Source: an uncultured archaeon
GTDB lineage: Archaea; Iainarchaeota; Iainarchaeia; Iainarchaeales; 0-14-0-20-30-16
Reading direction: 5' to 3'
DNA: 64,000 nucleotides
Assembly: GCA_964595665.1 (NCBI GenBank)
Contig: CAZQQS010000001.1
Span: 138-64,137, forward strand
A program made the position numbers and the translations under genes. A model generated the notes under the pieces. The model searched no databases, was not told where the DNA came from, and saw nothing but the letters and a program-made list of their open reading frames with translations. Below are positions 86 to 57,886 of this stretch, one piece after another; the stretch's first letter is position 1, and each line of letters opens with the position of its first letter.

Positions 86-3000
86 TTGGTTGAAGATTTA
101 AATTTGAATTTTGGTGAAAAAGTTGTTGAGAATAAACCTTTTCCAAAGAAGATATTAATTATATGTATTGCTGCATTTTTAGTAGTATTAACTGGTATTT
201 TGTTATTTGTTTTTGCATTTCCACATAAAACAAATGTAGATTTTGATTTTTATTTAAATAATAATAAAGTAAATGAAGATTTAACTGTATTATTTAGTTA
301 TGATGATAAAAATTTTGAAGTAAAAACAGTTAAAGATAAGTTAACTGTGAGTTTGCCTAAAAATAAAGACGTTTCTTTAGAAGTTTTAACTATTGGATAT
401 CAATATAAAAAGAGTTTTTTTATAGATGGTAGTAAATATGATATAAAAATTAATAAAGCAACAAGCATTGCTGAATTAGAAGGGGAACAGGAAATAGTTC
501 AATTTTATATTTATAAATATCCAAATACTACTCAAATATATAATAAAGATTTAATTTTTAACTTGACTTGTAATACTTCAAAAAAAACGGATATGGTTAA
601 AGTAAATGGCTCTTATTCATATACTAAACCAGATGATTGTGGAAGTTTATCGGTAAAATTAGTATCTGATGAGTTTAAACCTATAAATCAAACTTGTGGA
701 TCATTATGTAAAATTATCTTGTATGATTTTGTTGATGTGTCTTTAAATACTAAAGTTAATGATTACCGAAATAATATTTTGGTATTTGCGAAACAAAAAG
801 GAAAATCTGCTTTAGAAGATGTAACTGTTTCATTATATAAAGAGAATATTTTTGTAATTGATGGTTTAACGGATAAAGATGGATTAATTTATTTTACAAA
901 TTTATTGGTTGGAGATTATAAAATTGTTGGAAATTATAAAAAAGGATCAAAAAATTATCAAGCTATTCAAAATGTTAAATTAGAAAATTTAGAAAAAGAT
1001 TTAAATGTTAATTTAGAATTTAAAATAAGTTCTGGGTCTGGGAGTTCTGGAAGTTCAGGAAGTTCATCTACTAAAATTTTAGAAGATAATACTCATAAAA
1101 TATTAATTAAAACATATGACGACTATAATATTCCTTTTAGATATCAAATATATGCTGGTAAAGATCTTGTTGCAGAAGATGTTAATATAACTCCTTTTGC
1201 AACCGTAGATTTAGAGGATGGTAATTATTATATAACTATAATTCCTGAAATTAATAAAGATTTTAATAAAAATTACAACCCAGTTTTTTTAGAAGAAATT
1301 AATTTGGATTCTGATAAAACTATATCTTTAAGAAAATTAGATTTAAATTCAAATGTATTTTTATCTTTACCAACATATTTGGATTCTGATAAAAATACCA
1401 AATATAAAACCTTACAATATGGTGTTGATTTAAAAATTTATGACTTTGATAGTAATGTTATAATTTATGATTATGTTAATGTAACTGATGAAATTCACAA
1501 GTTTATTTTGGATAAATCTAAAAAATATATTATAAAAGCTGAGAAAAATAATTATTATAAAAGTGATATTTATGAGTTTAAAAATTGTAAGACTAATGAT
1601 TATGGCGTTTGTATTGATTCTTTAAGTATTTATTTAGAAAATAAATATTTGGAATTGCCAGTAAAGGTTTATTTTAAAAATATCCTAGTAAAGGATTATA
1701 ATTTATATTATTCTACAGACAATGAGCTTTGGTTAGAGTATAAAGATGTAAATCTTAACTATAATGTGCCCTATTATTTTAAAGTTAATGCTTTTACATC
1801 TATTGGTAAACGTATGAAGAAAATACATTATTATTCAGCACCATTAACTTTTAGGAAAAATGATTCGATATTGAATATTTTCTTAGATTATGAAAAAGAT
1901 AATTTTAAATTTTTAAATCCATTAATTAATTTAGGTCAGAGTGTTGAAGGTAATTTCTTTTTAGATGATAAACTTACTAAAAAAATATCTAATAATCTAA
2001 ACATATTTAGAAAATATTATTTGCCAATAAATATGTATGCTAATAATACCCAATCTTATTATGTTGATTTTAATAATGTTGATGTATATTTAGATTCGGA
2101 GTCACTTAATACTTCTTCCATATCTAATTTGGAATCTTTAGTTGCGAATAATGATTTAGGGGATATAAATGCAAAACAAAAAATACCTGGCTCTCAAAAA
2201 TATTATGAAGTTATTTATATAAAACAATATATTTATGAAGTTATTCCTCAAGGATCGGATTCGGGTTTTTTATCTTTGAATAAAAATTTGCGCCCAATAA
2301 TAGATAATAATTATTATGCGAGAGTTGATTTTAATATTTTAGCACCATTGGAAAATATTTTAGATTTGAATTATAATTTAAATAAAGTAGTGAATAAAGA
2401 TTTTTACTTATTTAATAATGAAATATTGCAAGGTGTTGATCTTTACTCTTCAGTTTTAGAATTATATCCAAAATATAGGTCTAAATTTACAAATTATATT
2501 TATTTGGATTCTAATGTAAAAGATCAAGATTTTAATATTGATTTATCTTTGTATATTCCTAAAAAATATTTTAATTGTAAAATCTTATCTGAAAACTATT
2601 TTAAAATAAATTTGTTTAATAATAATTTTAAAATAATTGATGATTATTTGAATTTGAAAGTAGATTTAAATTTAGATTATTTTAAACATATATCAAAACC
2701 TATAGAATACTCAAATAATTTGAGTTTAAATTTAGATTGTGATTATTTTGTTTCAACCCCTATGCCAAAACGAAGTGTTAAAGATAATATGTCTTTACAA
2801 TCAATAGATTTATTTAAAGCAATAAATTTTGTAAATAGTTTTCAAAAATTACCTGCTATAAATTTGTTAAATAGAGGCGTGAATTTGGAGAATTTAAGTT
2901 CTAGTTCAAAAGGATCTGTGAAAAGAAGTACATCGAGTGTTAGTAATCCAGATTTAAATGTGGTAATTCCATTAACATTTTATATTGTAGATGACTCTGC

Positions 3001-3370
3001 ATTTTACAATGAATTATTAGGTTGTTTTAATATATCTTTAAATGGTAATAATTATTTGGAATATATGTTATGCTCTTCGGCATTAGATAATTTAATTTTA
3101 GAAGATGTTAATGTAAGCGTAAGTAATAATTGTAAGGGTTCTAGATTGTATGTGAATGATAGTTATATTGATGAAACTTATATTGAGGATTTAAAAGGCG
3201 CTTGTAATGCATATACCTGTGCTGTAAAAATAAATTACTTAGGGAAAGATTTTGAATGGAAATTTAGAACTTATTCTCAAGATGCTTCTTATATCTCAGT
3301 AGATTATATCCCAGTAGATGATAATTTTTTGCCTAGAGATATAGCACTTCCTAAAGCAAATATAAACTAA
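86..3370 (+). CDS. large cell-surface protein (N-terminal signal-anchor TM helix, Ser/Gly linker, N-rich ectodomain with many N-x-S/T sequons; S-layer/adhesin-like)
   Basis: 1094-aa ORF; hydrophobic helix at aa 21-45; SSGSGSSGSSGSSS linker; no recognisable enzymatic motif. Confidence 0.45.
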   Translation: MVEDLNLNFGEKVVENKPFPKKILIICIAAFLVVLTGILLFVFAFPHKTNVDFDFYLNNNKVNEDLTVLFSYDDKNFEVKTVKDKLTVSLPKNKDVSLEVLTIGYQYKKSFFIDGSKYDIKINKATSIAELEGEQEIVQFYIYKYPNTTQIYNKDLIFNLTCNTSKKTDMVKVNGSYSYTKPDDCGSLSVKLVSDEFKPINQTCGSLCKIILYDFVDVSLNTKVNDYRNNILVFAKQKGKSALEDVTVSLYKENIFVIDGLTDKDGLIYFTNLLVGDYKIVGNYKKGSKNYQAIQNVKLENLEKDLNVNLEFKISSGSGSSGSSGSSSTKILEDNTHKILIKTYDDYNIPFRYQIYAGKDLVAEDVNITPFATVDLEDGNYYITIIPEINKDFNKNYNPVFLEEINLDSDKTISLRKLDLNSNVFLSLPTYLDSDKNTKYKTLQYGVDLKIYDFDSNVIIYDYVNVTDEIHKFILDKSKKYIIKAEKNNYYKSDIYEFKNCKTNDYGVCIDSLSIYLENKYLELPVKVYFKNILVKDYNLYYSTDNELWLEYKDVNLNYNVPYYFKVNAFTSIGKRMKKIHYYSAPLTFRKNDSILNIFLDYEKDNFKFLNPLINLGQSVEGNFFLDDKLTKKISNNLNIFRKYYLPINMYANNTQSYYVDFNNVDVYLDSESLNTSSISNLESLVANNDLGDINAKQKIPGSQKYYEVIYIKQYIYEVIPQGSDSGFLSLNKNLRPIIDNNYYARVDFNILAPLENILDLNYNLNKVVNKDFYLFNNEILQGVDLYSSVLELYPKYRSKFTNYIYLDSNVKDQDFNIDLSLYIPKKYFNCKILSENYFKINLFNNNFKIIDDYLNLKVDLNLDYFKHISKPIEYSNNLSLNLDCDYFVSTPMPKRSVKDNMSLQSIDLFKAINFVNSFQKLPAINLLNRGVNLENLSSSSKGSVKRSTSSVSNPDLNVVIPLTFYIVDDSAFYNELLGCFNISLNGNNYLEYMLCSSALDNLILEDVNVSVSNNCKGSRLYVNDSYIDETYIEDLKGACNAYTCAVKINYLGKDFEWKFRTYSQDASYISVDYIPVDDNFLPRDIALPKANIN
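1915..1949 (+). repeat. 35-bp exact repeat, copy 1 (inside surface-protein gene); copy 2 at 13693-13727
   Basis: AAATCCATTAATTAATTTAGGTCAGAGTGTTGAAG identical at both loci; encodes NPLINLGQSVE in both ORFs. Confidence 0.7.
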
Positions 3371-13381: not shown

Positions 13382-13441
13382 TCTAAAAAGCAATATTTAA
13401 AAGCACATCGTTATATAAGTGTATATAACTAAGTGATTTTT

Positions 13442-13732
13442 ATGGTTGTTAAAAAAGATATTAAATTAGTAAAAAAAGAAATATTGCATTATCCTCAATT
13501 GGATTCTGTTTTAATGGTTGAAGATTTTTTACAAGGTATGAAAGATAATTATACTAAAAAACAAGTGTGGCAAAGATTACCTAAGAAAATGATGTATCAA
13601 ACCTTTTGTGTTATTTTAGATTATTTGGAGAAATCAAATAAAATTGCTTATGATTCTAAAGGTAATGTTGTTTGGATATTTTTTGATAAAAAAAATCCAT
13701 TAATTAATTTAGGTCAGAGTGTTGAAGTATGA
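13442..13732 (+). CDS. hypothetical protein, putative antitoxin partner of the downstream RelE-like gene (4-nt overlap)
   Basis: Operonic ATGA overlap. ORF-track start 13433 is GTG inside the SD; ATG 13442 is more likely. The 3' end carries a 35-bp repeat shared with ORF 86..3370. Confidence 0.35.
   Translation: MVVKKDIKLVKKEILHYPQLDSVLMVEDFLQGMKDNYTKKQVWQRLPKKMMYQTFCVILDYLEKSNKIAYDSKGNVVWIFFDKKNPLINLGQSVEV
13693..13727 (+). repeat. 35-bp exact repeat, copy 2 (3' end of putative antitoxin gene)
   Basis: see copy 1. Confidence 0.7.
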
Positions 13733-14076
13733 ATTGTAGAGTAAAACTATCTCCCGAGTTATATAAATATTATGAGAAAATCGAATTGGAAGTTAAGCAA
13801 GGCAAAATGGTTAATGAAAGAGAATATAAATTGATTTGTAAAGGTATTGAATTATTAAAAGAAGATTTCCGAAAAGGAATGCACATAAGTAAAAAGAATG
13901 TAAGTGCTTATGAATATTTTATTAAAAAATATAATGTAAAGAATTTATGGAAATTAGATGTTAGTAAGGATTGGAGATTAATTTACACAGTTGAAGGTAA
14001 TGAAATAGAAGTAATTTCGTTTATTTTAGAATCATTAAGCCATAAAGAGTATGAAAGAAAACTGGGTTATCATTAA
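13729..14076 (+). CDS. RelE/ParE-superfamily toxin
   Basis: C-terminal WRLIYTVEGNEIEVISFILESLSHKEY matches the RelE/ParE core (R..IY.V......I....H..Y). Confidence 0.55.
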   Translation: MNCRVKLSPELYKYYEKIELEVKQGKMVNEREYKLICKGIELLKEDFRKGMHISKKNVSAYEYFIKKYNVKNLWKLDVSKDWRLIYTVEGNEIEVISFILESLSHKEYERKLGYH

Positions 14077-17574: not shown

Positions 17575-17582
17575 GTGTGATT

Positions 17583-18329
17583 ATGGAATATTACAAAATT
17601 AAAGATAAAGACGCTGTAGCAAAATCTTTTAATTGCCCTATCTCTTTTAAATTTTCTGTTGAAATGGCAAGAGAAGTTAAAAGTATGACTTACGAAAAAG
17701 CAATTAAGTTTTTAGAAGATGTAATTGCATTAAAAAGACCTTTACAATTAAAAAGATATAATAGAGATGTAGCTCATAGAAAAGGAAAAATTGGAGAAGT
17801 TAAATCTGGTAGATTCCCTGTAAAAGTTGCACAATATTTTAAAAAGGTTTTAGAAATTGCAAAAGCTAATGCAGATTATAAAGGATTAGATTCAAGTAAA
17901 AAAGATTTGATAGTTAAAGGTGCAGTTGTATCTCAAGGTGTAAAAAGATATAGTTATCAAACACAAGGAAAAAGAAGATTAAGAAGAGATCAAACTACTA
18001 ATATTGAAATAGTATTAACACAACAAGGTAAATTTGTTAAAAAAGCTGAAAAGAAAATAGCCAGTGCTTCTTTAGAATCAAAAGATTCAAAAAAATCACA
18101 GGTTGTTGAAAGCTCATCTAAAGATGCCGTTTCAACACAAGAAAAAAAAATTGTTGATGTAACACAAGATAAAAAATCTGTTGAAGTTAAAGAAGTAAAA
18201 GAAGTTAAAAAAGAAACAAAAAAAGCCAGTTCAACTTTAGAATCTAAAGATTCAAAAGCTAAACAGGTTGTTGAAAGTTCTTCTAAAAAAGAAGCCGTTT
18301 CAACACAAGAGAAGAAAGGTAAAAAGTGA
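17583..18329 (+). CDS. rpl22: ribosomal protein uL22 with ~95-aa C-terminal extension carrying two copies of a repeated Ser/Lys/Glu-rich module
   Basis: uL22 core to ~aa 150; tail ASASLESKDSKKSQVVESSSKDAVSTQEKK repeated twice. ORF-track start 17577 is GTG; ATG 17583 is likely. Confidence 0.85.
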   Translation: MEYYKIKDKDAVAKSFNCPISFKFSVEMAREVKSMTYEKAIKFLEDVIALKRPLQLKRYNRDVAHRKGKIGEVKSGRFPVKVAQYFKKVLEIAKANADYKGLDSSKKDLIVKGAVVSQGVKRYSYQTQGKRRLRRDQTTNIEIVLTQQGKFVKKAEKKIASASLESKDSKKSQVVESSSKDAVSTQEKKIVDVTQDKKSVEVKEVKEVKKETKKASSTLESKDSKAKQVVESSSKKEAVSTQEKKGKK

Positions 18330-18334
18330 TTTTA

Positions 18335-19330
18335 ATGATTGAGAAATTTTTCGTGAAACAAAGATTTAAGAAATTAGATTTAGAAAAATTCTTTGCAAAA
18401 AGATTTTCAAAAGCTGGATTTAATAGTTTAGAAATTGTTAAAACTCCATTATCTACAAGATTAGTAGTTTCTGTTGCAAAACCAGGAATAGCTATTGGAT
18501 ATAGTGGAAAATCAATAAAAACTATTGGAAGTATTTTAGAAGATAAATTTGGAATAAAAAATCCACATATAGAAGTTAAAAGTGTTGAAGATCCAGATTA
18601 TAATGTAAAATATATTGTTCAAAATATAGTTAGAGATTTAGAAAAAGGAATTAATTGGAAACAAGTTGCTTTTAGAGTAGTTAGAAGTTTATCTGATTTG
18701 CCAATTATGGGTTTTGAATTAATCTTTAAAGGAAAAATGATGTCTAAAGGTGGAAGAAAACAAAAATATAGATTTATTTCTGGATATTTAAAAACTATTG
18801 GAGATCAAACAAAATTAGTTAAATTTGCAATGGCTTCTGCATCAACAAAATCAGGAAGTATTGGAGTAAGATTAAAATTAGTTCCTCCTAATGTAATGTT
18901 CCCAGATAAAGTTGGAGAAAAAGAAATTAAAGAAGCTTTAGAAAGAATGAAAACAAAAGTTGTTATAGAAAAAATAGAAGATGGTAAAATAATAAAAGTT
19001 GAAGAAAAAGATATTAAAGAAATTAAAGCTGAAGTTAAAGTAGAAAAAAAAGCTGTTGAAGTTAAAGCAGTTAAAGAAGTAAAAGAAAAAAAGGTTACTG
19101 AAAAGAAAGCCAGTTCAACTTTAGAATCTAAAGATTCAAAAGCTAAACAGGTTGTTGAAAGCTCATCTAAAGATGCCGTTTCAACACAAGAAAAAGAAGT
19201 AAAAGAAAAAAAACCAAAAGTAAAAAAAGTAACTGAAAAAAAAGCCAATTTAGATTCAAAATCTAAACAGGTTGTTGAAAGCTCATCTAAAGATGCCGTT
19301 TCAACACAAGAAAAAGAGAGTGATAATTAA
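18335..19330 (+). CDS. rps3: ribosomal protein uS3 (KH domain) with ~130-aa Lys/Glu-rich C-terminal extension carrying two copies of the same module
   Basis: uS3 core; tail ASSTLESKDSKAKQVVESSSKDAVSTQEK repeated twice; ATG 18335 preferred over GTG 18326. Confidence 0.85.
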   Translation: MIEKFFVKQRFKKLDLEKFFAKRFSKAGFNSLEIVKTPLSTRLVVSVAKPGIAIGYSGKSIKTIGSILEDKFGIKNPHIEVKSVEDPDYNVKYIVQNIVRDLEKGINWKQVAFRVVRSLSDLPIMGFELIFKGKMMSKGGRKQKYRFISGYLKTIGDQTKLVKFAMASASTKSGSIGVRLKLVPPNVMFPDKVGEKEIKEALERMKTKVVIEKIEDGKIIKVEEKDIKEIKAEVKVEKKAVEVKAVKEVKEKKVTEKKASSTLESKDSKAKQVVESSSKDAVSTQEKEVKEKKPKVKKVTEKKANLDSKSKQVVESSSKDAVSTQEKESDN

Positions 19331-19602
19331 TGACTAAAACAGCAAAAAAATATAGAGAATTAAGTATTACTGAATTAAAAGATAAAGTTAAAGAATTAAA
19401 AGAAAATTATTCTAAAGAAATTGTTAAAACAAAAACTGGTGCAAATAAAGAAAAAGCTTTTAATTTAAGAAAAGCAAAAAAAGAAATTGCTACAGTATTA
19501 ACAATTGCAAGAGAAAAAGAAATTAAACATGAAGAAGATAAATTAAAACCAAAAGTTAAGGTTGTAAAAGAAGTAAAAGAAAAGAAAGTTAAAAAAAAAT
19601 AA
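19330..19602 (+). CDS. rpl29: ribosomal protein uL29 with Lys-rich C-terminal extension
   Basis: similarity, synteny. Confidence 0.85.
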   Translation: MTKTAKKYRELSITELKDKVKELKENYSKEIVKTKTGANKEKAFNLRKAKKEIATVLTIAREKEIKHEEDKLKPKVKVVKEVKEKKVKKK

Positions 19603-19614
19603 GGGGTTTATGAA

Positions 19615-19911
19615 ATGGTAGATATTTGTAATATCTGTGGTTTGCCGAAAGACATCTGCGTATGTCAGAAAATGAATACAGAGCAAATTAAAATTTATGT
19701 TGTGGAAAAACACGTCAAAGGACCAATGTTTGTAACAATTGTAAATGGTTTAGATGATCTAAACGAAATAGAGAACATGAATAAAGAGTTAAAGAAAAAG
19801 TTAGCTTGTGGTGGAACTTTAAAAAACAAAGATATTGTTTTGCAAGGAAAACATAAGAAAAAAGTAATTCTTTATTTAAAGGGGAAAGGATATGATACAT
19901 TTCATCTCTAA
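19615..19911 (+). CDS. translation initiation factor SUI1 (aIF1)
   Basis: VTIVNGLDD...KKLACGGTLKN SUI1 core; conserved position. Confidence 0.8.
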   Translation: MVDICNICGLPKDICVCQKMNTEQIKIYVVEKHVKGPMFVTIVNGLDDLNEIENMNKELKKKLACGGTLKNKDIVLQGKHKKKVILYLKGKGYDTFHL

Positions 19912-20149
19912 AGATGTTTTAACTAAAGTTTTTTTAGGAAAAAAAATAAATGTTTTTTTTGCTAGCGATAAAACAAAACAAGTTAAAGGCATTGTACAAA
20001 AAGAGACAAAAAATATGTTTTATATTAAAACAGATAAAGGATTAAAAAAAATTCCTAAAAAGGAAATTTTCTTTTATTTGGATGATGAAAAAGTTGATGG
20101 AAAAACAATATGTTATAGATTAGCAGATAGAATAAAAAAATATGCTTAG
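19892..20149 (+). CDS. RNase P protein component Rpp29 (Pop4)
   Basis: conserved position between SUI1 and uS17; Rpp29-like fold signature. Confidence 0.65.
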   Translation: MIHFISKDVLTKVFLGKKINVFFASDKTKQVKGIVQKETKNMFYIKTDKGLKKIPKKEIFFYLDDEKVDGKTICYRLADRIKKYA

Positions 20150-30136: not shown

Positions 30137-30763
30137 ATGGGTGATCCAAAAAAAATTAGAAAGAAGTATGATAAACCAAAAAGACCTTGGGATAAGTCTA
30201 GAATTGTTTTAGAAAAAGATTTATTATTAAAATATGGTTTAGTTTCTAAAAAAGAATTAAGAATTATGGAAGGAATTATTGGTAAAAAAAGAGCAACAGT
30301 TAAAAATTTATTAACTGCTCCTCAAGAAGTTGCTGAAAAAGGAAGACAAGAATTAGTATCTTCATTAAATAAAATAGGATTGGTTTCAAAAGATGCAACA
30401 TTCACAGATATTTTAGGATTAACTGTTCAAGATATATTAGAAAGAAGATTACAAACTATAGTATATAGAATGGGTTTAGCAACTACTGTAAAACAAGCAA
30501 GACAATTTATTACACATGGTTTAATTGTAATAAATGGTAGAAGAATAACTATTCCAAGTTATATAGTTACATCTGATGAAGAAAAAGCAATAGGTTATTT
30601 TGGAAATAAAAAACCAAAGATTTTAGAATTGGAAATGAAAAAACCAGAATTGCATAAAACTGCTAAAACAGAGTCAAAAGTTGTAGATGAAAAAACTGAA
30701 GAATTAGTTGATGAAGTTTTAGAAGATAACGAAGTAGAAGTTATTGAAGAAGAGAGTGATTAA
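30137..30763 (+). CDS. rps4: ribosomal protein uS4 with acidic C-terminal tail
   Basis: similarity; ATG 30137 preferred to GTG 30128. Confidence 0.9.
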   Translation: MGDPKKIRKKYDKPKRPWDKSRIVLEKDLLLKYGLVSKKELRIMEGIIGKKRATVKNLLTAPQEVAEKGRQELVSSLNKIGLVSKDATFTDILGLTVQDILERRLQTIVYRMGLATTVKQARQFITHGLIVINGRRITIPSYIVTSDEEKAIGYFGNKKPKILELEMKKPELHKTAKTESKVVDEKTEELVDEVLEDNEVEVIEEESD

Positions 30764-31148
30764 AATGAAAGTTGCAATTGTACATATTTTTTCAACTTAT
30801 AATAATACAAAAATGTTAGCTACTGATGTAACAGGTGCAGAAACTTTAGCAAAAAGTTCTGGTGGTATAGTAACTAAAAGTCAACACAAACAAGGTTCAC
30901 CATATGTTGCTATGAAAATGGCTGAACAAATATCATCAACATTAAAAACAAAAGGTTATGATAATATTGTAGTTAAAGTAAGAGCTACTGGTGGAATTAA
31001 AGCAAAGAATCCTGGACAAGGTGCAGATGCTGCTATAACTTCATTAACTAGAAGTGGAATGAATATTGTTGAAATTGAAAATGTTACTCCATTACCACAT
31101 GATGGATGTAGACCAAAGAAAAAATACTTATCTAAGAAAAAACAGTAA
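30744..31148 (+). CDS. rps11: ribosomal protein uS11
   Basis: similarity, synteny. Confidence 0.9.
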   Translation: MKKRVIKMKVAIVHIFSTYNNTKMLATDVTGAETLAKSSGGIVTKSQHKQGSPYVAMKMAEQISSTLKTKGYDNIVVKVRATGGIKAKNPGQGADAAITSLTRSGMNIVEIENVTPLPHDGCRPKKKYLSKKKQ

Positions 31149-31166
31149 ATAGGATATGGGGATTTT

Positions 31167-32006
31167 ATGCAAGTTAAATTTTTAAAGAAAAATGGTTTTG
31201 AATATAAATTTTTATTAGAAGATACTAGAAATGATATTTTAAATGCTATTAGAAGAACTATATTATTACATGTTCCAACTTTTGCTGTAACAAAAGTTTC
31301 AATATATAAAAATGAAGGTGTAATGTTAGATGAAATGTTAGCTAGTAGATTAGGATTAGTTCCTATTTATGCTTCTGAAGTTGATGATAGTGAACACCAT
31401 TTGTATTTAAAGAAAAATAATGGTATGGTTTATTCTGGGGATATTACTACAACTGGAATATTAGAAATACCTTTAAAAAATATACCTATAACTTTATTAA
31501 AAGAGAATAAAAATTTGGAATTAGAATTAACTGTTAAAAAAGGATATGGTAAAGATCATGTTAAATTTAGTCCAGCAAATGTATATTTTAATAATTTGCC
31601 AGAATTAAAACAGAAAGGCGATGTAGATATTAAAATATGTCCAAAAAATATTTTTGAAAAAAAAGCAAATAAAATATTTTTAAAAGATCCTTATAGTTGT
31701 GATTTGTGTAGATATTGTGAAGATAAATCAAATGGAAATATACAAATATTATTAAATGATGAAAAATTTGTATTAAATATAATTCCATTTGGAAGTTTAG
31801 ATTTAAAAACTATAATTATAGAAACATATAATCATTTAAATAATGAATTAAATGAATTAAAAGCCAGTTTAAATTTAGAACCCAAAAGTTCAAAATCTAA
31901 ACAGGTTGTTGAAAGCTCTTCTGAAAAAGAAGCCATTTCAACACAACTAAAAGTTAAAGAAGTAAAAGAAAAGAAAACAACAACTAAAAAACCAAAAAAA
32001 GAATAA
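31167..32006 (+). CDS. rpoD: DNA-directed RNA polymerase subunit D (Rpo3) with Cys-cluster domain and a C-terminal copy of the SK-KQVVESSS-STQ tail module
   Basis: Rpo3 core; CDLCRYCED motif; tail PKSSKSKQVVESSSEKEAISTQLK. Confidence 0.85.
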   Translation: MQVKFLKKNGFEYKFLLEDTRNDILNAIRRTILLHVPTFAVTKVSIYKNEGVMLDEMLASRLGLVPIYASEVDDSEHHLYLKKNNGMVYSGDITTTGILEIPLKNIPITLLKENKNLELELTVKKGYGKDHVKFSPANVYFNNLPELKQKGDVDIKICPKNIFEKKANKIFLKDPYSCDLCRYCEDKSNGNIQILLNDEKFVLNIIPFGSLDLKTIIIETYNHLNNELNELKASLNLEPKSSKSKQVVESSSEKEAISTQLKVKEVKEKKTTTKKPKKE

Positions 32007-32047
32007 ATCTTTCTGAGAAAGATTTTGTGCAGGGGTTCCAGAGTGGT

Positions 32048-39853: not shown

Positions 39854-40225
39854 GTGAATATGCCACAATTTGTAAAATATAGTGTAACTGAAGATTTGAC
39901 TAATAAATTAGCAGATTTTTTAGGTAAAGCATCAAAAACAGGAAAAATAAAAGCTGGAGTTAATGAAGTAACTAAAATGTTAGAAAGAGGTCAAGCTAAA
40001 TTAATAGTTATGGCTGAAGATGTTAGTCCAGAAGAATTATTATATCACATACCTGTTTTATGTAATGATAAAAAAATACCTTTTTCTTATGCAAAAGATA
40101 AAAAAGAATTGGGAAAAATGTGTAATTTAAAAGTTGGTGCTTCTTGTGTTGCTGTAATTAACGAAGGAGTTGCAAAAAAAGAATTAGATGATATTGCAAA
40201 AATAATAAAAGAATTAGTTAAATAG
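39854..40225 (+). CDS. rpl7ae: ribosomal protein eL8/L7Ae (K-turn binding)
   Basis: similarity. Confidence 0.9.
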   Translation: MNMPQFVKYSVTEDLTNKLADFLGKASKTGKIKAGVNEVTKMLERGQAKLIVMAEDVSPEELLYHIPVLCNDKKIPFSYAKDKKELGKMCNLKVGASCVAVINEGVAKKELDDIAKIIKELVK

Positions 40226-42822: not shown

Positions 42823-44016
42823 GTGAAATATTTGATTGCACAGTCAGAAGTTAATATAGGTATAATTGGTCACGTAGATCATGGTAAAACTGCTTTAACT
42901 AAAATGCTGACTGGTAAATGGGTAGATACTCACTCAGAAGAATTAAAAAGAGGAATATCAATTAGATTGGGATATGCTGATGTAATTTTTAAAAAATTAC
43001 CTAAAAAAGATGATTTTGAAGCATATACTACTTTAGATGAAATTAATGGTGAAAAAACTGAAGCTGTAAAAAGAATATCTATAGTTGATAGCCCAGGACA
43101 TGAATCTTTAATGGCAACAATGTTAAGTGGTGTTGCAATAATTGATTGTGCAATTTTAGTAATTGCTGCAAATGAGAAATGTCCTATGCCTCGAACTATG
43201 GAACATTTATTAGCTGCAAAATATTCTGGTATAAAAGAATTGATTGTAGTTCAAAATAAAATTGATTTAGTTAATGAGGAACAAGCAAAACAAAATTATA
43301 AAGATATTAAAAAGTTTTTAGAAGATTTAGATTTTAAAGATGTTCCAATAATTCCAATATCTGCGAATCATAGCATAAATAAAGATGTTTTAATTTATGC
43401 AATTTCAAATTATTTTAAAAAGAATCCAAAAAAAGAATCTGAAGAATTTAAAATGTATATTGTAAGATCATTTGATGTTAATAAACCCGGTGCAGATGTT
43501 GAAAATTTAATTGGTGGAATTATTGGTGGTTCAATAGTTTCTGGAAAAGTAAAATTAAATGATGAAATTGAAATTAATGTTGGTGAAAAAAATATTAAAA
43601 CAAAAGTTTTAGCATTAAATACAGAATTAGGATCAATAAAAGAAGCTGGTTCTGGAGGGTTAATTGCTATTGCTACAAATTTAGATCCTAGTATAACTCA
43701 AAACGATAAATTAAAAGGACAAGTAATTTATAAAGCGGGTAAAATGCCTTCTCCAAAAAGCAATATTTTAGTTGATATGCATACAATTGATAGATTATTA
43801 GTAGATGATATGAAAAAGCCTTTAATAGTTAATGAACCATTAATTATTACTATAGGTACTACAACAGCAATAGGTCAAGTTGCATCTATTAAAAATAATT
43901 TAGTAAGATTTACATTAAGAGTTCCAGTAATAATAGAAAAAGAACAACAGATATCTATTAGTAGAAGATCTGTAAATGGTTGGCGATTATATGGTTATGG
44001 GTTTATCAAAGAATAA
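42823..44016 (+). CDS. translation initiation factor aIF2 gamma subunit
   Basis: GHVDHGKTALT, zinc knuckle absent/variant, EF-Tu-like. Confidence 0.9.
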   Translation: MKYLIAQSEVNIGIIGHVDHGKTALTKMLTGKWVDTHSEELKRGISIRLGYADVIFKKLPKKDDFEAYTTLDEINGEKTEAVKRISIVDSPGHESLMATMLSGVAIIDCAILVIAANEKCPMPRTMEHLLAAKYSGIKELIVVQNKIDLVNEEQAKQNYKDIKKFLEDLDFKDVPIIPISANHSINKDVLIYAISNYFKKNPKKESEEFKMYIVRSFDVNKPGADVENLIGGIIGGSIVSGKVKLNDEIEINVGEKNIKTKVLALNTELGSIKEAGSGGLIAIATNLDPSITQNDKLKGQVIYKAGKMPSPKSNILVDMHTIDRLLVDDMKKPLIVNEPLIITIGTTTAIGQVASIKNNLVRFTLRVPVIIEKEQQISISRRSVNGWRLYGYGFIKE

Positions 44017-44374
44017 AGTTATTTTAGACACAAGTGCTTTACTTTTATTAAGTGAAGGATATAATTTTTTTGACAAAGTAGAAAGAGAATTTGGAAATGT
44101 TGAATATATTGTTCCAAAAAGTGTTGTTTCAGAAATGAATAAATTATCTAGAGAAAATTTAAAGCATAAAAAGAGTTTAAATTTGTTTATGCGTTTATTA
44201 GATACATATAATATGAGAATTATTGAAACTGGAAATACTTATGCTGATAAAGATTTGTTGGAAATGGATGGAAGTTTATTTGTTACAACAGATTTTGAAT
44301 TAGCAAAAAAATTAAAAGATCAAGGTAAAAAGATATTTGTATTAAAACATAATAAGTTTTATGATTATTATTGA
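43976..44374 (+). CDS. PIN-domain protein (conserved aIF2gamma-PIN-RpoE neighbourhood)
   Basis: ILDTSAL acidic PIN motif; overlaps aIF2gamma 3' end, start probably internal. Confidence 0.6.
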   Translation: MVGDYMVMGLSKNKVILDTSALLLLSEGYNFFDKVEREFGNVEYIVPKSVVSEMNKLSRENLKHKKSLNLFMRLLDTYNMRIIETGNTYADKDLLEMDGSLFVTTDFELAKKLKDQGKKIFVLKHNKFYDYY

Positions 44375-45212: not shown

Positions 45213-45551
45213 ATGAAATTTGAAATATTAGAACAAAAAGATAATAGGTTGTTAAACAGAAAAGACTTTATTGTTAAAATAAATGAAGTTAATATAACTC
45301 CAAAAAGACAAGAAGTATTGAAAAGTTTTGCAGCAAAACAAGGTATGGATGAAAAAAAATTAGTAGTAGATAAAATAAGCTCAGAAAGTGGAATAAAAGA
45401 TGTTGTAGTTTATTTTAAATATTATGACGATGTTAATTCTTTGAAAAAAATAGAATTAAAAGATAATTTAAAACATTATGAAAAATTAAATCCTAAACCT
45501 GAAGAAAAAAAGAAAGAAGCAAAAGAAGAAAAAAAAGAGAGTGATGCTTAA
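45213..45551 (+). CDS. rps24e: ribosomal protein eS24
   Basis: similarity. Confidence 0.85.
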
Positions 45552-45763
45552 TGGCTCCAAAAAAAGATGCTAAGTCAGGTAAGAAACCACATAAAAAAAC
45601 ATTAAGAATTAAGAAAAGTGCATTTTATGAAGTTAAAGAAAATTCTGTAATAAGAAAAAGAAAAACTTGTGTTAAATGTGGTGCAGGAGTATTTATGGCT
45701 GAACATAAAGACAGATACACTTGCGGTAAATGTGGTTACACTGAAATGAAAAAGAAGGAATAA
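45551..45763 (+). CDS. rps27ae: ribosomal protein eS31 (S27ae)
   Basis: CVKCGAG...CGKCG zinc ribbon. Confidence 0.85.
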
Positions 45764-46216: not shown

Positions 46217-46600
46217 ATGGATTTAAATAGTAAAATTGATAATATTGTTTTAGAACTAAAAAAAGATTCTAATGTTTTGGCTGTTTATTTATTTGGTTCT
46301 TATGCTTTAAATAAACAAAAACCATATTCTGACATAGATTTATGTATTTTTCTAAAAGATTATTCTAATTATTTAGATTATTATGGATTTAGCAGTAAAT
46401 TTGTTGACATTTCTACATTTAATAAATTGCCATTAACTGCAAAATATAAAGTATTTAAAGAAGGTAAACCTATTTATGTGAAAAATAAACAAGAATTAGA
46501 AGAAATTCTAAGAATTACTATGAGAGATTATTTAGATTTTAAATATCATTTTGATTATCAATTAAATTATTTTTTAAATAAACCAAGTGTATCTTTATGA
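46217..46600 (+). CDS. minimal nucleotidyltransferase (MNT/MntA-type antitoxin)
   Basis: LFGSYA...SDIDL nucleotidyltransferase motif. Confidence 0.7.
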   Translation: MDLNSKIDNIVLELKKDSNVLAVYLFGSYALNKQKPYSDIDLCIFLKDYSNYLDYYGFSSKFVDISTFNKLPLTAKYKVFKEGKPIYVKNKQELEEILRITMRDYLDFKYHFDYQLNYFLNKPSVSL

Positions 46601-47007
46601 ATAATACTAGATTAATAAAAATATATTCTGATTTAGATAGGTTTATTTCAGATTTGAAAGTAATAAATATAACTTCTTGCAAAGATTTAGAGGATAATAT
46701 TAAATATCATGCAGTTTCTATGCTTTTATTTTCAATATTAAATAGGGTTATAGATTTGGGTGAAGAACTTATTTTAAATAAAGGTTTTGCTTTGCCGGAG
46801 TCTTATAAAAGTGTTTTTGAGATTTTGAATAAAGAAAAAATAATTTCAAATGATGAATATCAAAAAATAAGAGAAATGATAAATATAAGAAATTTAATTG
46901 CACATCAGTATTATGCTTTTGATGATAAGGATATTTTTAATGCGTATCAAAATTTAGCAGTTATAATTAAGTTTATTAATCGTACTAAATCTATTTTTAA
47001 AAATTAA
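46597..47007 (+). CDS. HEPN-domain protein (HepT-type toxin)
   Basis: R-x4-HxY motif IRNLIAHQY; 4-nt overlap with the MNT gene. Confidence 0.7.
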   Translation: MNNTRLIKIYSDLDRFISDLKVINITSCKDLEDNIKYHAVSMLLFSILNRVIDLGEELILNKGFALPESYKSVFEILNKEKIISNDEYQKIREMINIRNLIAHQYYAFDDKDIFNAYQNLAVIIKFINRTKSIFKN

Positions 47008-52656: not shown

Positions 52657-52754
52657 AATCTTTTTTGATTCTTATTGTTTCGAGTGGCCATACTTGTTAT
52701 AAGTGTGCACACTTATTTATAAATCTTTTGTGTCTTATATTACTAGGTGATTTT

Positions 52755-52958
52755 ATGACTAATGTAACTTTTTCTTTACCCAATGAAACTTATGCTTTTA
52801 TGAAAAAATATAATGAAGTTAAATGGAGTGTTGTTGTTCAAAAATCAATAAATCAATATATTGCAAAATTAGAGCAAGATGAAGATTTTTTAGAAAAATA
52901 TTCTGTTAAAAAATTGTTTGAAGAAGGTGAAGAAGCGGATGCAATCTTTGATTTATAA
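52755..52958 (+). CDS. putative antitoxin (RHH/CopG-like) of the MazF-like toxin
   Basis: SD AGGTGA before ATG 52755; small acidic C-terminus; overlaps the toxin gene. Confidence 0.45.
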   Translation: MTNVTFSLPNETYAFMKKYNEVKWSVVVQKSINQYIAKLEQDEDFLEKYSVKKLFEEGEEADAIFDL

Positions 52959-53289
52959 TTTTGGAGATATTTTTGTTGCAAAAAATCCATATTCTGATTT
53001 AGTTTCTAGTAAAACAAGACCTGTAATAATTATTAGTCCTAATAAGTATAATAATTTGTATCAAGATGTTGTAGTATTAAGTATAACTACTCAAGATAAA
53101 GATCTTAATATTTCTCAATTAATTTCAAATAATGATTTAGTTGATAAAAAATTAAAACAAATTAGTTTTATAAGAGTAGATAAACCAAATTCAATATCTA
53201 AACAAATATTAGAATATAAAATAACATCTTTAAAACCAGAAATATTAATTAAATTAAAGCAAAAAATAAAAGAATTCTATAATTTATGA
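52918..53289 (+). CDS. MazF/PemK-family toxin (mRNA interferase)
   Basis: GDIFVAKNP...KTRPVIIISPN...VVVLSITTQ matches the PemK/MazF core; start may be internal at 52939. Confidence 0.65.
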   Translation: MKKVKKRMQSLIYNFGDIFVAKNPYSDLVSSKTRPVIIISPNKYNNLYQDVVVLSITTQDKDLNISQLISNNDLVDKKLKQISFIRVDKPNSISKQILEYKITSLKPEILIKLKQKIKEFYNL

Positions 53290-54094: not shown

Positions 54095-55320
54095 ACTTCC
54101 CAAGACCAAACACCTTTCATTGCAGCAATATTAATTTTCTTTTCATTTTCTTTAAAATATGTTTTGCCAAATTTATTTTCAATAGTGTTTAACATTTCAT
54201 TATATTTTTTTAACCCAAATATATATCCTACTTTAGTCCAGGTTTGTAAAAATCTATTCTTTGAATCGTTTTTGAACCAATCTGCCCAATAATAATTTTT
54301 AGTTATTTTTAATATCTCATTATATCCATTAAATCCTTTTTCTTTTTGTTCTCTATCTTTAGTTAATCCAAAATATAATGACTCTATTCTAAATTGTGTT
54401 TTTAATTCAGTATTTAATTTAGAATATTCTATATCAAAATTATTTAATTCTAATTCTTTATATTTATTTTTTAAAAAATCAAATGCTTCGTTTTCTCTAT
54501 AAGTTGCAATGCCTTCTGTTACAGGCATTTGTGAAAATAATCTAAAATCACTAGTTAATTGTAATGTTTTAGGTAGATCTCTAGAATATATTTGATGTGC
54601 TCCATGCCCTAATAGTTCATGGAAACCTACGCAATATGCATTAATTGGTTTAATTAATATTTTTTTGTTTTGTAAAATATGATAAAAACCATATGATCCT
54701 AAATTCAATATTTTTTTGTCAGCTTGCCAATAACTCATTTCTGTATTTGTTTCTTTAGGGGGTAATAAAAATATGTTATAATCAAAATTTTTAGGCAAAT
54801 ATTTTTTTTTGATTCCATATGTTAAAATATCTTTTTTTATTTTTGGTAAAATATTTTTAGTTAATTCTTTTGCATCATCAGTAAATCTGTTTATCTTAAT
54901 TTTATTAACTTCTCGTTCCATTTCAGAATATTTCCATTTTTTTTCATAGGGTACATTTTTCATATGGTATTCTAAATATTTAAATGAACCTTTACCCATT
55001 GTACTATCTAACATTTTTTTTACAGTATAAGGAGAATCTTTGTTTGTAAAAAAATCAATTATTATATCATTTATTTTTAAGTTAGATAAAATATTTTCTA
55101 AATATAATTCTTCAAAATAATTTTTAGAATTTGAATCATTAACTTTATTTTTTATTTCTTTTAGTTTTTTAGTATATAATTCTTTTACATATAAATTGCT
55201 TTTATTATTTAATAGTGTGGATATTAATATATAAAAATCATATATATCCAAATCTAATTTTTGTAATTCTTTACTTAACATAAAATCATCTCTTAAATGC
55301 ACTTGCTGTTTTACCAGCAT
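54049..55320 (-). CDS. uncharacterised 423-aa protein co-transcribed with the HerA-like ATPase (contains HELLGHGAH, a HExxxH-type motif)
   Basis: 35-nt overlap with the upstream ATPase gene; K/N-rich; no confidently recognised family. Confidence 0.4.
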   Translation of the reverse strand: MLVKQQVHLRDDFMLSKELQKLDLDIYDFYILISTLLNNKSNLYVKELYTKKLKEIKNKVNDSNSKNYFEELYLENILSNLKINDIIIDFFTNKDSPYTVKKMLDSTMGKGSFKYLEYHMKNVPYEKKWKYSEMEREVNKIKINRFTDDAKELTKNILPKIKKDILTYGIKKKYLPKNFDYNIFLLPPKETNTEMSYWQADKKILNLGSYGFYHILQNKKILIKPINAYCVGFHELLGHGAHQIYSRDLPKTLQLTSDFRLFSQMPVTEGIATYRENEAFDFLKNKYKELELNNFDIEYSKLNTELKTQFRIESLYFGLTKDREQKEKGFNGYNEILKITKNYYWADWFKNDSKNRFLQTWTKVGYIFGLKKYNEMLNTIENKFGKTYFKENEKKINIAAMKGVWSWEVYPKAVEYFLEEHIK

Positions 55321-57886
55321 CCCATGTTGTTCTGGGTCTTATCTTAACCATCCAAAGTTTTTCTGAATTATCATCTAGGATTAAAGCATAACCTTTTGCT
55401 CTTGGCAATGTAGCATAATATTTATCCATATCTTCATTTAGGTAGCTAGGACGTAAAGCACCAACAGAATCAATATCCATTTTTGCAGTTAATCGCATAC
55501 TAATAAATAAATCACATTGAGAAATTGCATCTGGATGTAATCTTTCGGGTCTTTGTGTTGCCAATAATAAAGATAAACCGGGTTGTCTTCCTACTCTAAC
55601 CCATTCTAATAAAACATCTAATGCCATAGAATTTCTATCTTTTGGCATGAACATGTGTGCTTCATCAATTAGCATCCAAACCATTGGTAAATCAGCTTGT
55701 TTATCTTCTCCTGCAATCAATAATATTTCTTCTTTTTTTCTTTCTAATTCTCTTTGTTCAAACAATCTTTTTCCTAATATTGCAACTATAATTTCTCTAA
55801 CATTTTCCATTCCCAAAACTTGACCATAAGTTGAAACATCTACAACAGTAATTGCTCCTGGTTTGGCAATATCTGTAATATTTGAACCATCTTTGAAAAA
55901 TATTCCCCAAGAATCAGCAACTTTAAATCTATTTTTTAAATTTGCTCTATCTTTTAAATCATAATTTTCTAATGAATCTATAATACTATAAATTTCAGGT
56001 AAACCATAATAAGTATTAAATGTTGCTCTTGCCTTTTCAATTGTTTCTAATAAAATTGCAGATTCAATTTCTGACCAAGATAAATGGAACATAGATAGCC
56101 ATTCAGTAGAATCAATATCTGCTAATTTTAAACTAAATGCAGCATCTACAGGCAATTTATTTTTTTCATAAAAATCTAGTTTTCCTGCAGGTACTAAAAC
56201 TCTAAAATTATTTAATCCTTGAGGTTCTAAACCCCAATCATATAATGAATCTGATTCTTCTCTATTTGGTAATTTCATTGACCAAAATATCCCAACAGTA
56301 TCAATTACAATAATTGCCATTTTATTTCTTATATCTGGAGGTAATTGATTAAATCCTTCTAAGAATACAGACATAGTATAACTATTATGGACTATTATAT
56401 CATTTGCAATAAAGTTGTGATGTTTAGGAACAACGATGTCGTATACTTTCTCAGTTTTATTTATTAACTCTATTTTTACTATTTCATCCCAAAAGATATC
56501 ACTTTTTGCTAAATTCATTAAATAATCTGATTTTTCTAATTTTGCAATTTTTTCTAATTTAGATCTTCCGATAGAGTATCTTTTTAACTCTCTTGCACTT
56601 TTAGGGATTTTGTAATTTAGTATTTTTCCAATTTTTGTCCAAGATGATTTAAATTCATAATTATTCCAAAGTTCTTTTGGGATTGTATCAATATTAGTAT
56701 TAAATTTTAATTTCTTCGCAATAGTTAATGCTGATTTTGCTTTTTTTTCTTTTTCTCCAAAGAATCCGATTTCTTCAATAAATGTTTTTACAAATTCACC
56801 AGAAATTACTAATTCATAGGCTTTGAATAATTTTCCTTTATAATTAATATTTTTATTCTTAGAAATGGATATAATTCCAAATCTTAAAAGTAAACTTTGA
56901 ACTTGTTTAATTAATTTTTCTGAAGCTGAGCAATAATCTATTCTATAGAATTCGCTATGTTTATAGATTGAACCATCACAACTAAATAATCTATTTAAAA
57001 ATAAAGATAATTCTTCTTTAGGTAATTTGTATATTATTTCAGGAATTTCTTTTTCTTTTGCCAATTTATCAAAAGCACTAATTTCTTTTAGCCATTTTTT
57101 CAAGCTGTTTTGAGGCGTGAATTCAATTCCTTTACTGAATAAATTGCCTGTTCTACAATTAATTAATATTTCTCTTTTATAATTGTTATTAATAGTTCTT
57201 AATGTTACGCCCATTGGTTTTGTGCAAAGATTCTTATCAAATTTACAAACACATTTCTTATAATCTTCAATTATTTTTTCATCTGTATTTGTAAACCACA
57301 CATTATTGTTCATCGTGTGTCCTTCAGCTATCAAATATGCTAAAAGTTTTGTTTTACAATTATCTAATTTGGTTTTCCCAAAGAAAGATATTCTTCTAGG
57401 AGTTGCAATTCTTGAGCCGTTCTTTAATTTTTGAGCTTCTTGCCACCCATTAATAGTATATAAAGGGTGTTCAGGAGTTAATTCAATTTCTTTACCAGTT
57501 CTTAATTTTAGTTTAAGTATTTTATTTACTGTTCTTTCGTAAAACTCAGTTTTATTTGATTTTTCTAAATTTAAATTAGTATTTAAAGCAATTATTTTTC
57601 GCTTATCTTTGGTCAAATCCTTAATTTTACAAACAAGTCCATCTTCTAATTGTATTTCAGTATTTCCGGTTAGGCATTTTCCTCCACCTCTTTTTCCACA
57701 AATCAATACAACGTGTGGTCGAGCTAAGTCAACAATAATTTTTCTACCTAATACTGGGTTTTCACCAGAACTCATTACAACTTTGCCTAAAAAACCAGTT
57801 CCTTTTTTGCCATATTTTTTAATATCGCTTTCTGTTCTTCCTATAATTACTTCTTCTGTGCTTAATTCAAATGACATATTATACAA
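55286..57886 (-). CDS. HerA/FtsK-superfamily (DUF87-like) P-loop ATPase interrupted by a 431-aa LAGLIDADG intein
   Basis: Extein Walker A GKRGGGK|S reconstituted across the intein. Walker B MLIDEAH. HerA-like LLLATQRPERL...SQCDLFISMRLT. Confidence 0.7.
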   Translation of the reverse strand: MYNMSFELSTEEVIIGRTESDIKKYGKKGTGFLGKVVMSSGENPVLGRKIIVDLARPHVVLICGKRGGGKCLTGNTEIQLEDGLVCKIKDLTKDKRKIIALNTNLNLEKSNKTEFYERTVNKILKLKLRTGKEIELTPEHPLYTINGWQEAQKLKNGSRIATPRRISFFGKTKLDNCKTKLLAYLIAEGHTMNNNVWFTNTDEKIIEDYKKCVCKFDKNLCTKPMGVTLRTINNNYKREILINCRTGNLFSKGIEFTPQNSLKKWLKEISAFDKLAKEKEIPEIIYKLPKEELSLFLNRLFSCDGSIYKHSEFYRIDYCSASEKLIKQVQSLLLRFGIISISKNKNINYKGKLFKAYELVISGEFVKTFIEEIGFFGEKEKKAKSALTIAKKLKFNTNIDTIPKELWNNYEFKSSWTKIGKILNYKIPKSARELKRYSIGRSKLEKIAKLEKSDYLMNLAKSDIFWDEIVKIELINKTEKVYDIVVPKHHNFIANDIIVHNSYTMSVFLEGFNQLPPDIRNKMAIIVIDTVGIFWSMKLPNREESDSLYDWGLEPQGLNNFRVLVPAGKLDFYEKNKLPVDAAFSLKLADIDSTEWLSMFHLSWSEIESAILLETIEKARATFNTYYGLPEIYSIIDSLENYDLKDRANLKNRFKVADSWGIFFKDGSNITDIAKPGAITVVDVSTYGQVLGMENVREIIVAILGKRLFEQRELERKKEEILLIAGEDKQADLPMVWMLIDEAHMFMPKDRNSMALDVLLEWVRVGRQPGLSLLLATQRPERLHPDAISQCDLFISMRLTAKMDIDSVGALRPSYLNEDMDKYYATLPRAKGYALILDDNSEKLWMVKIRPRTTWDAGKTASAFKR
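56384..57676 (-). mobile_element. intein (Hint blocks A/B/F/G plus LAGLIDADG homing endonuclease) inserted in the ATPase P-loop
   Basis: Starts CLTGNTEIQLEDG (block A). TPEHPLYT (block B). LLAYLIAEGHT and LFSCDGSIY (two LAGLIDADG motifs). VYDIVVPKHHNFIAN (block F). Ends DIIVHN; +1 residue Ser (block G). Confidence 0.8.

Follow-up and report, generated by a model that had tools for sequence, protein, structure and literature searches.

A family of two-hairpin repeat elements, read through as protein tails, in a low-GC DPANN lineage

We describe here a repeat element of ~90–95 nt, folding into two hairpins, that occurs five times in a 64-kb stretch of archaeal DNA (called “the window” below, meaning this stretch at its full length), in frame in the C-terminal tails of the ribosomal proteins uL22 and uS3 and of the RNA polymerase subunit Rpo3/D. 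Together with copies found in related metagenome contigs, they make up a repeat family whose structure is conserved, including where it is not translated, whose presence varies between close relatives, and whose hosts are uL22, uS3, uL29, Rpo3, a NUDIX protein and, with an internal copy, an AlkD-like enzyme. We consider it likely that this is a new family of elements resembling the Rickettsia palindromic elements (RPE) and the repetitive extragenic palindromes (REP), hosted by a low-GC DPANN lineage near ‘Ca. Diapherotrites’ and translated only incidentally. The peptide shared by its hosts would then be a by-product.

Five copies and their two hairpins

An earlier note on this DNA had drawn attention to four in-frame copies of an “identical ~80 bp” module, two in the tail of uL22 and two in that of uS3. 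Their positions and frames are confirmed, and a self-search of the window yielded a fifth copy, absent from that first list, in the C-terminal tail of Rpo3/D (85% identical). Near-identity holds as well, with a length slightly overstated: the identical core covers ~50–66 nt, and the 50-mer quoted at the time recurs unchanged in the two copies of uS3 and with 2 mismatches in the first one of uL22, while 100 shuffles give no match to it. In the list below, scores come from a covariance model (CM, model R1), which was built after an alignment of eight copies and used to score copies in the window and in the relatives’ loci, and from a sequence-independent structural descriptor (7–8 bp outer stem, G[CT]T, 4–6 bp inner stem, loop, CC[AG]).

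18057–18148 (+): copy 1 (uL22a); CM 103.4 bits, fold z −4.5, descriptor match; hairpin 2 at 18104–18137; peptide IASASLESKDSKKSQVVESSSKDAVSTQEK
18222–18316 (+): copy 2 (uL22b); CM 113.5 bits, fold z −3.6; hairpin 2 at 18269–18305
19106–19197 (+): copy 3 (uS3a); CM 110 bits, fold z −3.2, descriptor match; hairpin 2 at 19153–19186; peptide KASSTLESKDSKAKQVVESSSKDAVSTQEKE
19241–19317 (+): copy 4 (uS3b); CM 71.2 bits, fold z −3.8; hairpin 2 at 19273–19306
31860–31954 (+): copy 5 (Rpo3); CM 104.2 bits, fold z −5.7; hairpin 2 at 31907–31943; peptide KASLNLEPKSSKSKQVVESSSEKEAISTQLK

Copy 2, a +3 nt variant (SSSKKEA) with inner stem CTTC/GAAG, shows 93% identity across 89 nt and stops 1 nt short of GGTAAAAAGTGA, with which uL22 natively ends. 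In copy 4, hairpin 1 is shortened by the deletion of ~15 nt of the 5′ part, and the copy adjoins GAGAGTGAT..TAATG, that is, the native end of uS3 and the start of uL29. All five copies lie past the last Pfam domain of their hosts, which were verified by Pfam as follows.

17577..18329 (+): uL22 gene (host 1); L22 domain to residue 148 of 250, then a K/E-rich tail with two element copies
18326..19330 (+): uS3 gene (host 2); KH_2 and S3_C domains to residue 184 of 334, then a K/E-rich tail with two copies
31167..32006 (+): Rpo3/D RNA polymerase subunit gene (host 3); Rpb3/RpoA insert and dimerisation domains

Hairpin 1 is long and variable. Hairpin 2 is made of an outer stem of 7–8 bp, variable in sequence, an inner stem of 4–6 bp and a loop of 3–5 nt, with a conserved asymmetric internal loop in which 5′ G-C/T-T stands opposite 3′ C-C-R, as in TGTTGAAA-GCT-CATC-TAAA-GATG-CCG-TTTCAACA. 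The GC content of the element is 27–38%, in a window at ~25%. Compared with dinucleotide shuffles, the sense strands of the five window copies fold with z-scores of −3.2 to −5.7, and the relatives’ copies form the same two hairpins. The opposite strand folds equally well (z −2.8 to −5.3), so that folding does not discriminate which strand would be the acting one.

What the copies conserve is base pairing. In the MAFFT alignment of eight copies, 96.6% of the cells are paired, against 30–53% when the partner is slid by 1–3 columns, and 8 pairs are changed on both sides, against 0–1 in the slid registers. With 13 distinct copies (window and related metagenome contigs), in an alignment fitted to the model and with pairing counts therefore somewhat inflated, 96% of the cells are paired and 16 of the 27 pairs covary, against 1–4 in slid registers; none of 500 shuffles matched these values. 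In hairpin 2, pairing of the outer stem is complete (100%) for all four stem sequences, TGTTGAAA, CGTTAAAA, CCTAAAAA and TGTCAGAA, and the internal-loop letters AAGCTC...GCCR are kept even where both stems change sequence. In the uS3 copy of locus L003, for instance, hairpin 2 reads CGTTAAAA...TTTTAACG, and two base pairs differ from the window in both partners; one of these compensatory changes is synonymous in each arm (GTT>GTC with ACA>ACG), and the other alters the peptide non-conservatively (E>K with S>L).

Known structural motifs did not account for the element. At gathering score, Rfam found only tRNAs in the window, and permissive scans gave nothing below E=1. By inspection, we rejected a K-turn (no tandem G.A pairs), a C/D box (no RUGAUGA/CUGA), a bulge-helix-bulge splice motif (the 3-nt unpaired stretches are opposed, not staggered across 4 bp, and the inner helix has 4–6 bp) and an intrinsic terminator (no T-run follows the element on the sense strand).

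Copies in relatives, empty sites and surroundings

Searching with the uS3 core recovered the protein of the window itself (P0001) together with relatives of graded similarity. Those at 86–89% identity have plain K/E-rich tails; P0012 (~74%), encoded at L003, carries the module, of which its sister P0010 retains no more than a remnant. The module is likewise missing from uL22 and Rpo3 of the closest relatives, whose sites are empty with matching flanks at all three genes. At the uS3 end, L011, the nearest of these relatives, reads ...GAAGAAAAAAAA/GAGAGTGAT (the slash marking the junction) where the window has the element followed by ...CAAGAAAAA/GAGAGTGAT; at the uL22 end, it reads ...AAAAAAAA/GGTAAAAAGTGA where the window has the element followed by ...GAGAAGAAA/GGTAAAAAGTGA; and at the 5′ junction of uL22a, GAAAAGAAAATAG/AAAAACC in L011 stands against GAAAAGAAAATAG/CCAGTGC in the window. 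Clean filled/empty pairs are given by uL22a, uL22b and uS3b of the window versus L011, by L007 versus L021, and by Rpo3 P0047 versus P0154 and P0156. In L007 versus L021, an A-run five codons ahead of the native stop holds the element, and the last native Rpo3 codons and their stop persist downstream. The P0047 pairs belong to the clustering of Rpo3 at ≥90% identity, where P0047 has the module and P0154 and P0156 do not; Rpo3 of P0048 (L014, 84%) is also without it. Where Rpo3 has the module, its variant can differ, KDAV in P0045 and EKEAI in the window. A-runs bound most of the type-A copies, and insertion into such runs would make Lys-rich tails preferred targets.

The element remodels the most conserved proteins of the cell (uL22, uS3, uL29 and RNA polymerase subunit D) between strains otherwise ~90%+ identical, and phylogenomic marker alignments built from affected proteins could suffer. 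It also bears on the origin of disordered ribosomal-protein extensions. Long K/E-rich C-terminal extensions are found in most uS3 proteins of the clade (~60–150 aa in P0002–P0018 and P0021), strongly divergent in sequence even among close relatives, and these tails are the landing pad of the element. The recent spread put forward in the earlier note fits these data, as copies are near-identical in the genome and absent from uL22, uS3 and Rpo3 of the closest relatives. Slippage as its route does not, with copies 12.5 kb apart and others in unrelated genes elsewhere.

One has to ask whether such repeats could be mis-joined or duplicated by the assembly, or reflect mere local slippage or duplication of low-complexity tails. 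The contig L017 (JGI 3300035208, 1743 bp) illustrates the danger: it corresponds to window positions 30872–31953 joined to 19255–19980, each part at 97.8% identity, with an overlap that is the 62-nt shared core. This fusion of uS11-Rpo3 to uL29-SUI1 through the element core is probably a chimeric short contig, possibly a real recombinant, and in either case assemblers or recombination can switch copies; metagenome assembly can be misled in this way. Furthermore, uL22a, uL22b and uS3a are supported by the assembly of the window only. We nevertheless find an artefact hardly credible: substitutions and indels set the window copies apart, each within in-frame flanks of its own, the Rpo3 copy recurs in sister-strain contigs from other samples (L015 and L016 at 88–89% nucleotide identity, L017 at 97.8%), as does the last uS3 copy in its uL29 context (L017), and homologous elements occur in other lineages and other genes. 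Local slippage, for its part, does not reach over 12.5 kb.

Several copies are found outside coding sequence, entirely or in part. Three loci came out of a scan of metagenomes with a pattern that allows for variants. In L007 (a Rpo3 homologue) and L008 (a NUDIX-domain protein), the open reading frame (ORF) closes with ...ESKESKD*, its TAA stop being part of the element (GAT TAA CAGGTC); hairpin 2 is untranslated there yet intact, with inner stem CTTTG/CAAAG, and the loop of L007 contains a further stop. The same is seen in L018:10760–10853 (Rpo3 of the L003 lineage), with an in-element TAA and an intact hairpin 2 of outer stem CCTAAAAA/TTTTTAGG. Model R1 located an intergenic copy at L003:20590–20686, with a new outer stem (TGTCAGAA/TTCTGACA), an inner stem CTTGC/GCAAG and unchanged internal-loop letters, and the descriptor found a hairpin-2-type unit at L020:1883–1919 in a gene-free stretch. 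This stretch (L020:1800–1990) holds two hairpin-2-like units, at 1823–1856 and 1883–1919, which by eye adjoin a putative minus-strand tRNA gene. In L009, only the 3′ arm is left, as a decayed copy. Single genomes hold several dispersed copies, with 5 in the 64-kb window and 4–5 in the 34 kb of the L003/L018 contig. The uL29 tail of L003 (11195–11390) carries a compound copy, in which a second-type unit is nested in hairpin 2 of a first-type element; it is read through as VFKIPDAPSKNLTQSTRSSCEQQADSGT, a non-K/E peptide with Cys and Pro, and hairpin 2 of the nested unit agrees at 29/30 positions with hairpin 2 of the intergenic copy (L003:20641–20670).

When 1.84 billion representative proteins were screened with a profile built from the five peptides, just 2 matched. 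The stronger match is P0151, an AlkD-like DNA alkylation repair enzyme with an end-to-end match to PF08713; the module lies inside the enzyme domain, at residues ~85–116. Its DNA (L020:6225–6319) is a full element (98.6 bits), and removing 90 nt from the gene restores LQYKKIYDF. A single-sequence AlphaFold model of this host is of poor quality, with a predicted local distance difference test score (pLDDT) below 50 for residues 1–139. A search with the tail peptide (75 aa, low-complexity) in a collection of 5.8 billion proteins returned no match and also missed the window’s own uS3 (P0001), which is in the collection, so this negative is unreliable. The 21-mer core had 2 matches among genome contigs, both in unrelated bacteria and, by our estimate, about the chance expectation; the lineage is therefore absent from the GTDB representatives scanned. 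Exact look-up of the window’s Rpo3 and uS3 gave no contig on record.

As for the surroundings, the window carries an archaeal-type ribosomal-protein cluster (uL3, uL4, uL23, uL2, uS19, uL22, uS3, uL29, SUI1, Rpp29, uS17 onward and, further along, uS13, uS4, uS11, Rpo3/D, tRNA-Leu onward). The nearest named relative of its Rpo3 is a ‘Candidatus Diapherotrites archaeon’ (63% identity) and other homologues are labelled Pacearchaeota or Nanoarchaeota; from these labels, the organism is a DPANN archaeon. The string GAGAGTGAT(..)TAATG lies at three gene junctions, uS3/uL29 (19316–19332), uS4/uS11 (30752–30770) and eS24/next gene (45537–45555), and the downstream gene’s Shine-Dalgarno-like site seems to encode the ‘...ESD(N/A)*’ C-termini found there. 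Directly 3′ of the Rpo3 stop, a perfect short hairpin, AATCTTTC-TGA-GAAAGATT (32006–32024), is kept in L014 and L015. From this stop to tRNA-Leu there are ~21 nt in the window (32006–32028), against a hairpin-rich spacer of ~110–190 nt in relatives (L014:1307–1483, L007:1055–1223, L018:10860–10970), which has TTTTTGACACTTTGTA in common and shows weak minus-strand matches to the element model (21–28 bits). We excluded these matches (L014, L007) from the family: they are alike in their two-hairpin layout and have little sequence in common with it.

Elsewhere in the window, an 866-aa ORF (55286–57886, −) combines two domains, one for intein splicing and one of the LAGLIDADG homing-endonuclease type. 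L7Ae, an archaeal RNA-binding protein, is encoded at 39854–40225. Toxin-antitoxin-like genes stand among the housekeeping genes at 46217–47007, 52665–53289, 13433–14076 and 43976–44374, all on the + strand; their kinds are a nucleotidyltransferase/HepT pair, a MazF/PemK toxin preceded by a small ORF, a ParE-like toxin likewise preceded by an ORF, and a PIN_9 protein. The 1094-aa ORF at 86–3370 (+) has no Pfam match at E≤0.001.

Peptide, transcript structure or repeat element

The earlier note favoured, as one possibility, a selected peptide module common to ribosomal proteins and spread by recombination, which would serve as a targeting, tethering or phospho-regulatory tail. It is true that the same frame is always read, that the peptide is rich in Ser, Lys and Glu and lies in exposed tails, and that a core QVV-SSS...A..TQ is kept among translated copies. 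Of the six frames of the element, only two are open, +1, which gives the hydrophilic peptide seen, and −2, which gives a hydrophobic one with Cys; finding “the same peptide everywhere” is thus largely the result of a survivorship filter. A selected C-terminal motif should be more constrained in its amino acids than in its nucleotides, always be translated and occur in orthologues, and none of this is observed. Indeed, the second half of the module is kept in sequence and structure where it is untranslated, one copy is intergenic, the orthologues of the closest relatives are without it, and the module also sits on a NUDIX protein and within an unrelated enzyme, one of only two proteins its profile recovers. 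Compensatory changes swap residues non-conservatively, and the ratio of nonsynonymous to synonymous divergence (dN/dS) among translated copies is ~0.3–1.5 for most pairs. Synonymous divergence is lower in the module than in the host core (0.35 vs 0.56 for uS3, window/L003; 0.18 vs 0.40 for Rpo3, window/L015) and nonsynonymous divergence is equal or higher, on small numbers; these sequence comparisons are suggestive of weak peptide constraint. The selected-peptide reading is largely refuted in our view and very improbable as an explanation of the family.

Orientation calls for more attention. In 189 kb, the descriptor matches 13 times (~10 independent loci), always in sense to the host or neighbouring genes, including for untranslated copies; it has no antisense match in these 189 kb and none at all in 50 shuffles. 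This pattern keeps alive a strand-specific function, as RNA or as single-stranded DNA. The element could be a strand-specific mRNA structure that serves the host, housed in coding sequence as the genome is ultra-compact and retained for its function rather than selfishly; 3′-end or intercistronic stabiliser, processing site and protein-binding site are candidate roles. Most copies do lie at cistron 3′ ends, often 20–50 nt upstream of the next start codon, and the asymmetric internal loop outlasts sequence change in both stems. Within ORFs, however, the frame filter partly explains the sense-only pattern, and such a role sits poorly with the mid-gene copy in the AlkD-like enzyme, with tandem pairs inside a single tail and with the closest relatives, which lack the element at all five window sites with no obvious substitute. 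The opposite strand folds as well, so the sense RNA is not singled out, and no Rfam family matches. We regard a host-serving transcript structure as unlikely.

A wider proposal is that the element is a strand-specific functional RNA or single-stranded DNA at cistron ends with a passenger peptide or, alternatively, the first example of a new archaeal type of insertion targeting oligo-A, with a putative mobilising enzyme. In its first form, with next to no room between genes, a candidate RNA or single-stranded DNA element would end up within the sequences of ribosomal proteins, RNA polymerase and enzymes. The ~10 loci, all in sense, and the internal loop kept while both stems change speak for a functional structure or a new mechanism; we hold the proposal to be doubtful.

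We thus return to the repeat family with incidental translation, which we prefer. The family would have spread in the lineage by insertion into and between genes, mostly at oligo-A runs; such runs are especially common in the disordered, Lys/Glu-rich tails that ribosomal proteins carry, and these tails would also tolerate a hydrophilic insert of ~30 residues. An intragenic copy is then either read through as an S/K/E/Q-rich peptide or terminates the ORF, and because there is one stop-free sense frame, unrelated proteins acquire “the same tail”. Insertion may have been transposition-like or based on microhomology, followed by gene conversion among copies, and selection would act on the DNA or RNA structure, for the element’s own propagation and/or for a role in cis in the transcript.

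Several points weigh against this reading. No transposase or recombinase was found by Pfam among the ORFs of the 64-kb window, and the Pfam tables for ~130 kb of loci from relatives list none either; mobility is therefore deduced from the pattern only. The ends (5′ GCCAGT... and ...ACRCAAGAAAAA 3′) are not complementary and there are no terminal inverted repeats, the palindromy being internal. A target-site duplication of 4–6 nt of A is possible and indistinguishable from the A-run flank, and the comparison of the window with L014 at Rpo3 is not a clean filled/empty pair, as ~30 nt are replaced. The sense-only pattern, with 4–5 untranslated copies, is not predicted for a purely selfish, orientation-blind element. 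One has also to consider the inflated pairing counts of the 13-copy alignment mentioned above and a sample of ~190 kb from a handful of lineages. In any case, the family provides a defined and testable RNA/DNA motif from an uncultivated lineage.

Comparison with known repeat families

Among bacterial repeats, REP sequences, bacterial interspersed mosaic elements (BIME) and other small elements that lengthen genes at their 3′ side (ERIC, RUP, BOX and SPRITE; Delihas 2011, PMC3184786) resemble the family in several respects: imperfect palindromes of 35–40 nt (here hairpin 2) are present in multiple copies at gene or operon ends, some of them continue an ORF in frame at its 3′ end, and mRNA stabilisation is a plausible role. 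The present element differs in being archaeal, AT-rich rather than GC-rich, and mostly intragenic; the extragenic GC-rich palindrome with its GTAG/CGTC tag is not what we see, and neither this tag nor a RAYT gene occurs in the sequence examined.

With the archaeal miniature inverted-repeat transposable elements (MITE) of Sulfolobus, Halobacterium and others (PMC10969869), our family shares small size, non-autonomy, multiple copies, presence/absence polymorphism between strains and nested copies. It differs from them by its in-frame, translated copies and by having no terminal inverted repeats or demonstrable target-site duplication, and no parent insertion sequence (IS) was seen in the window or in the relatives’ loci. 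PARCEL repeats (PMC2996958) resemble it only by a dyad symmetry in coding sequence and by their dispersal within and between genomes: they are 25-residue amphipathic units in long tandem arrays of membrane or surface proteins, whereas we find single or double hydrophilic inserts of ~30 residues in housekeeping proteins, with some copies untranslated.

The closest precedent is that of the RPE (Ogata et al. 2000 Science and 2002 Genome Res, as presented in reviews: PMC10969869, PMC3184786), the bacterial case of in-frame palindromic repeats. They measure ~105–150 nt, number 44 copies in R. conorii, lie for about half of them in frame in unrelated genes and encode a conserved peptide. Several traits of an RPE-like element are found here: stable, conserved palindromic hairpins, copies dispersed in a single genome, in-frame insertion into unrelated genes with a conserved peptide, and copies outside coding sequence (the intergenic one in L003, the post-stop ones in L007, L008 and L018, and the L020 unit). 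Both are short (~100–150 nt) hairpin-forming palindromes of reduced genomes and patchy among relatives; RPE come with no transposase of their own, and none was seen for our family in the window or in the relatives’ loci. Ours differs by its DPANN host, its two hairpins with a conserved internal loop, its preference for gene 3′ ends and for the K/E-rich tails of ribosomal proteins and RNA polymerase, its own stop codons in some copies, and an orientation that is sense-only so far. Given these differences in domain of life and architecture, sequence homology to Rickettsia RPE-1 to RPE-10 is unlikely.

Our full-text literature search returned no report of such elements in archaea, a negative that holds for the texts searched. 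Protein-coding palindromes inserted in frame have been taken for a peculiarity of Rickettsia, and the title of Ogata 2002 speaks of “a unique but recurrent feature in Rickettsia”. With the DPANN archaeon, whose family is analogous but unrelated, such palindromes occur in a second, independent lineage of the reduced-genome, symbiont type, which suggests that the invasion of coding sequence by small palindromic repeats is a general outcome of scarce intergenic space.

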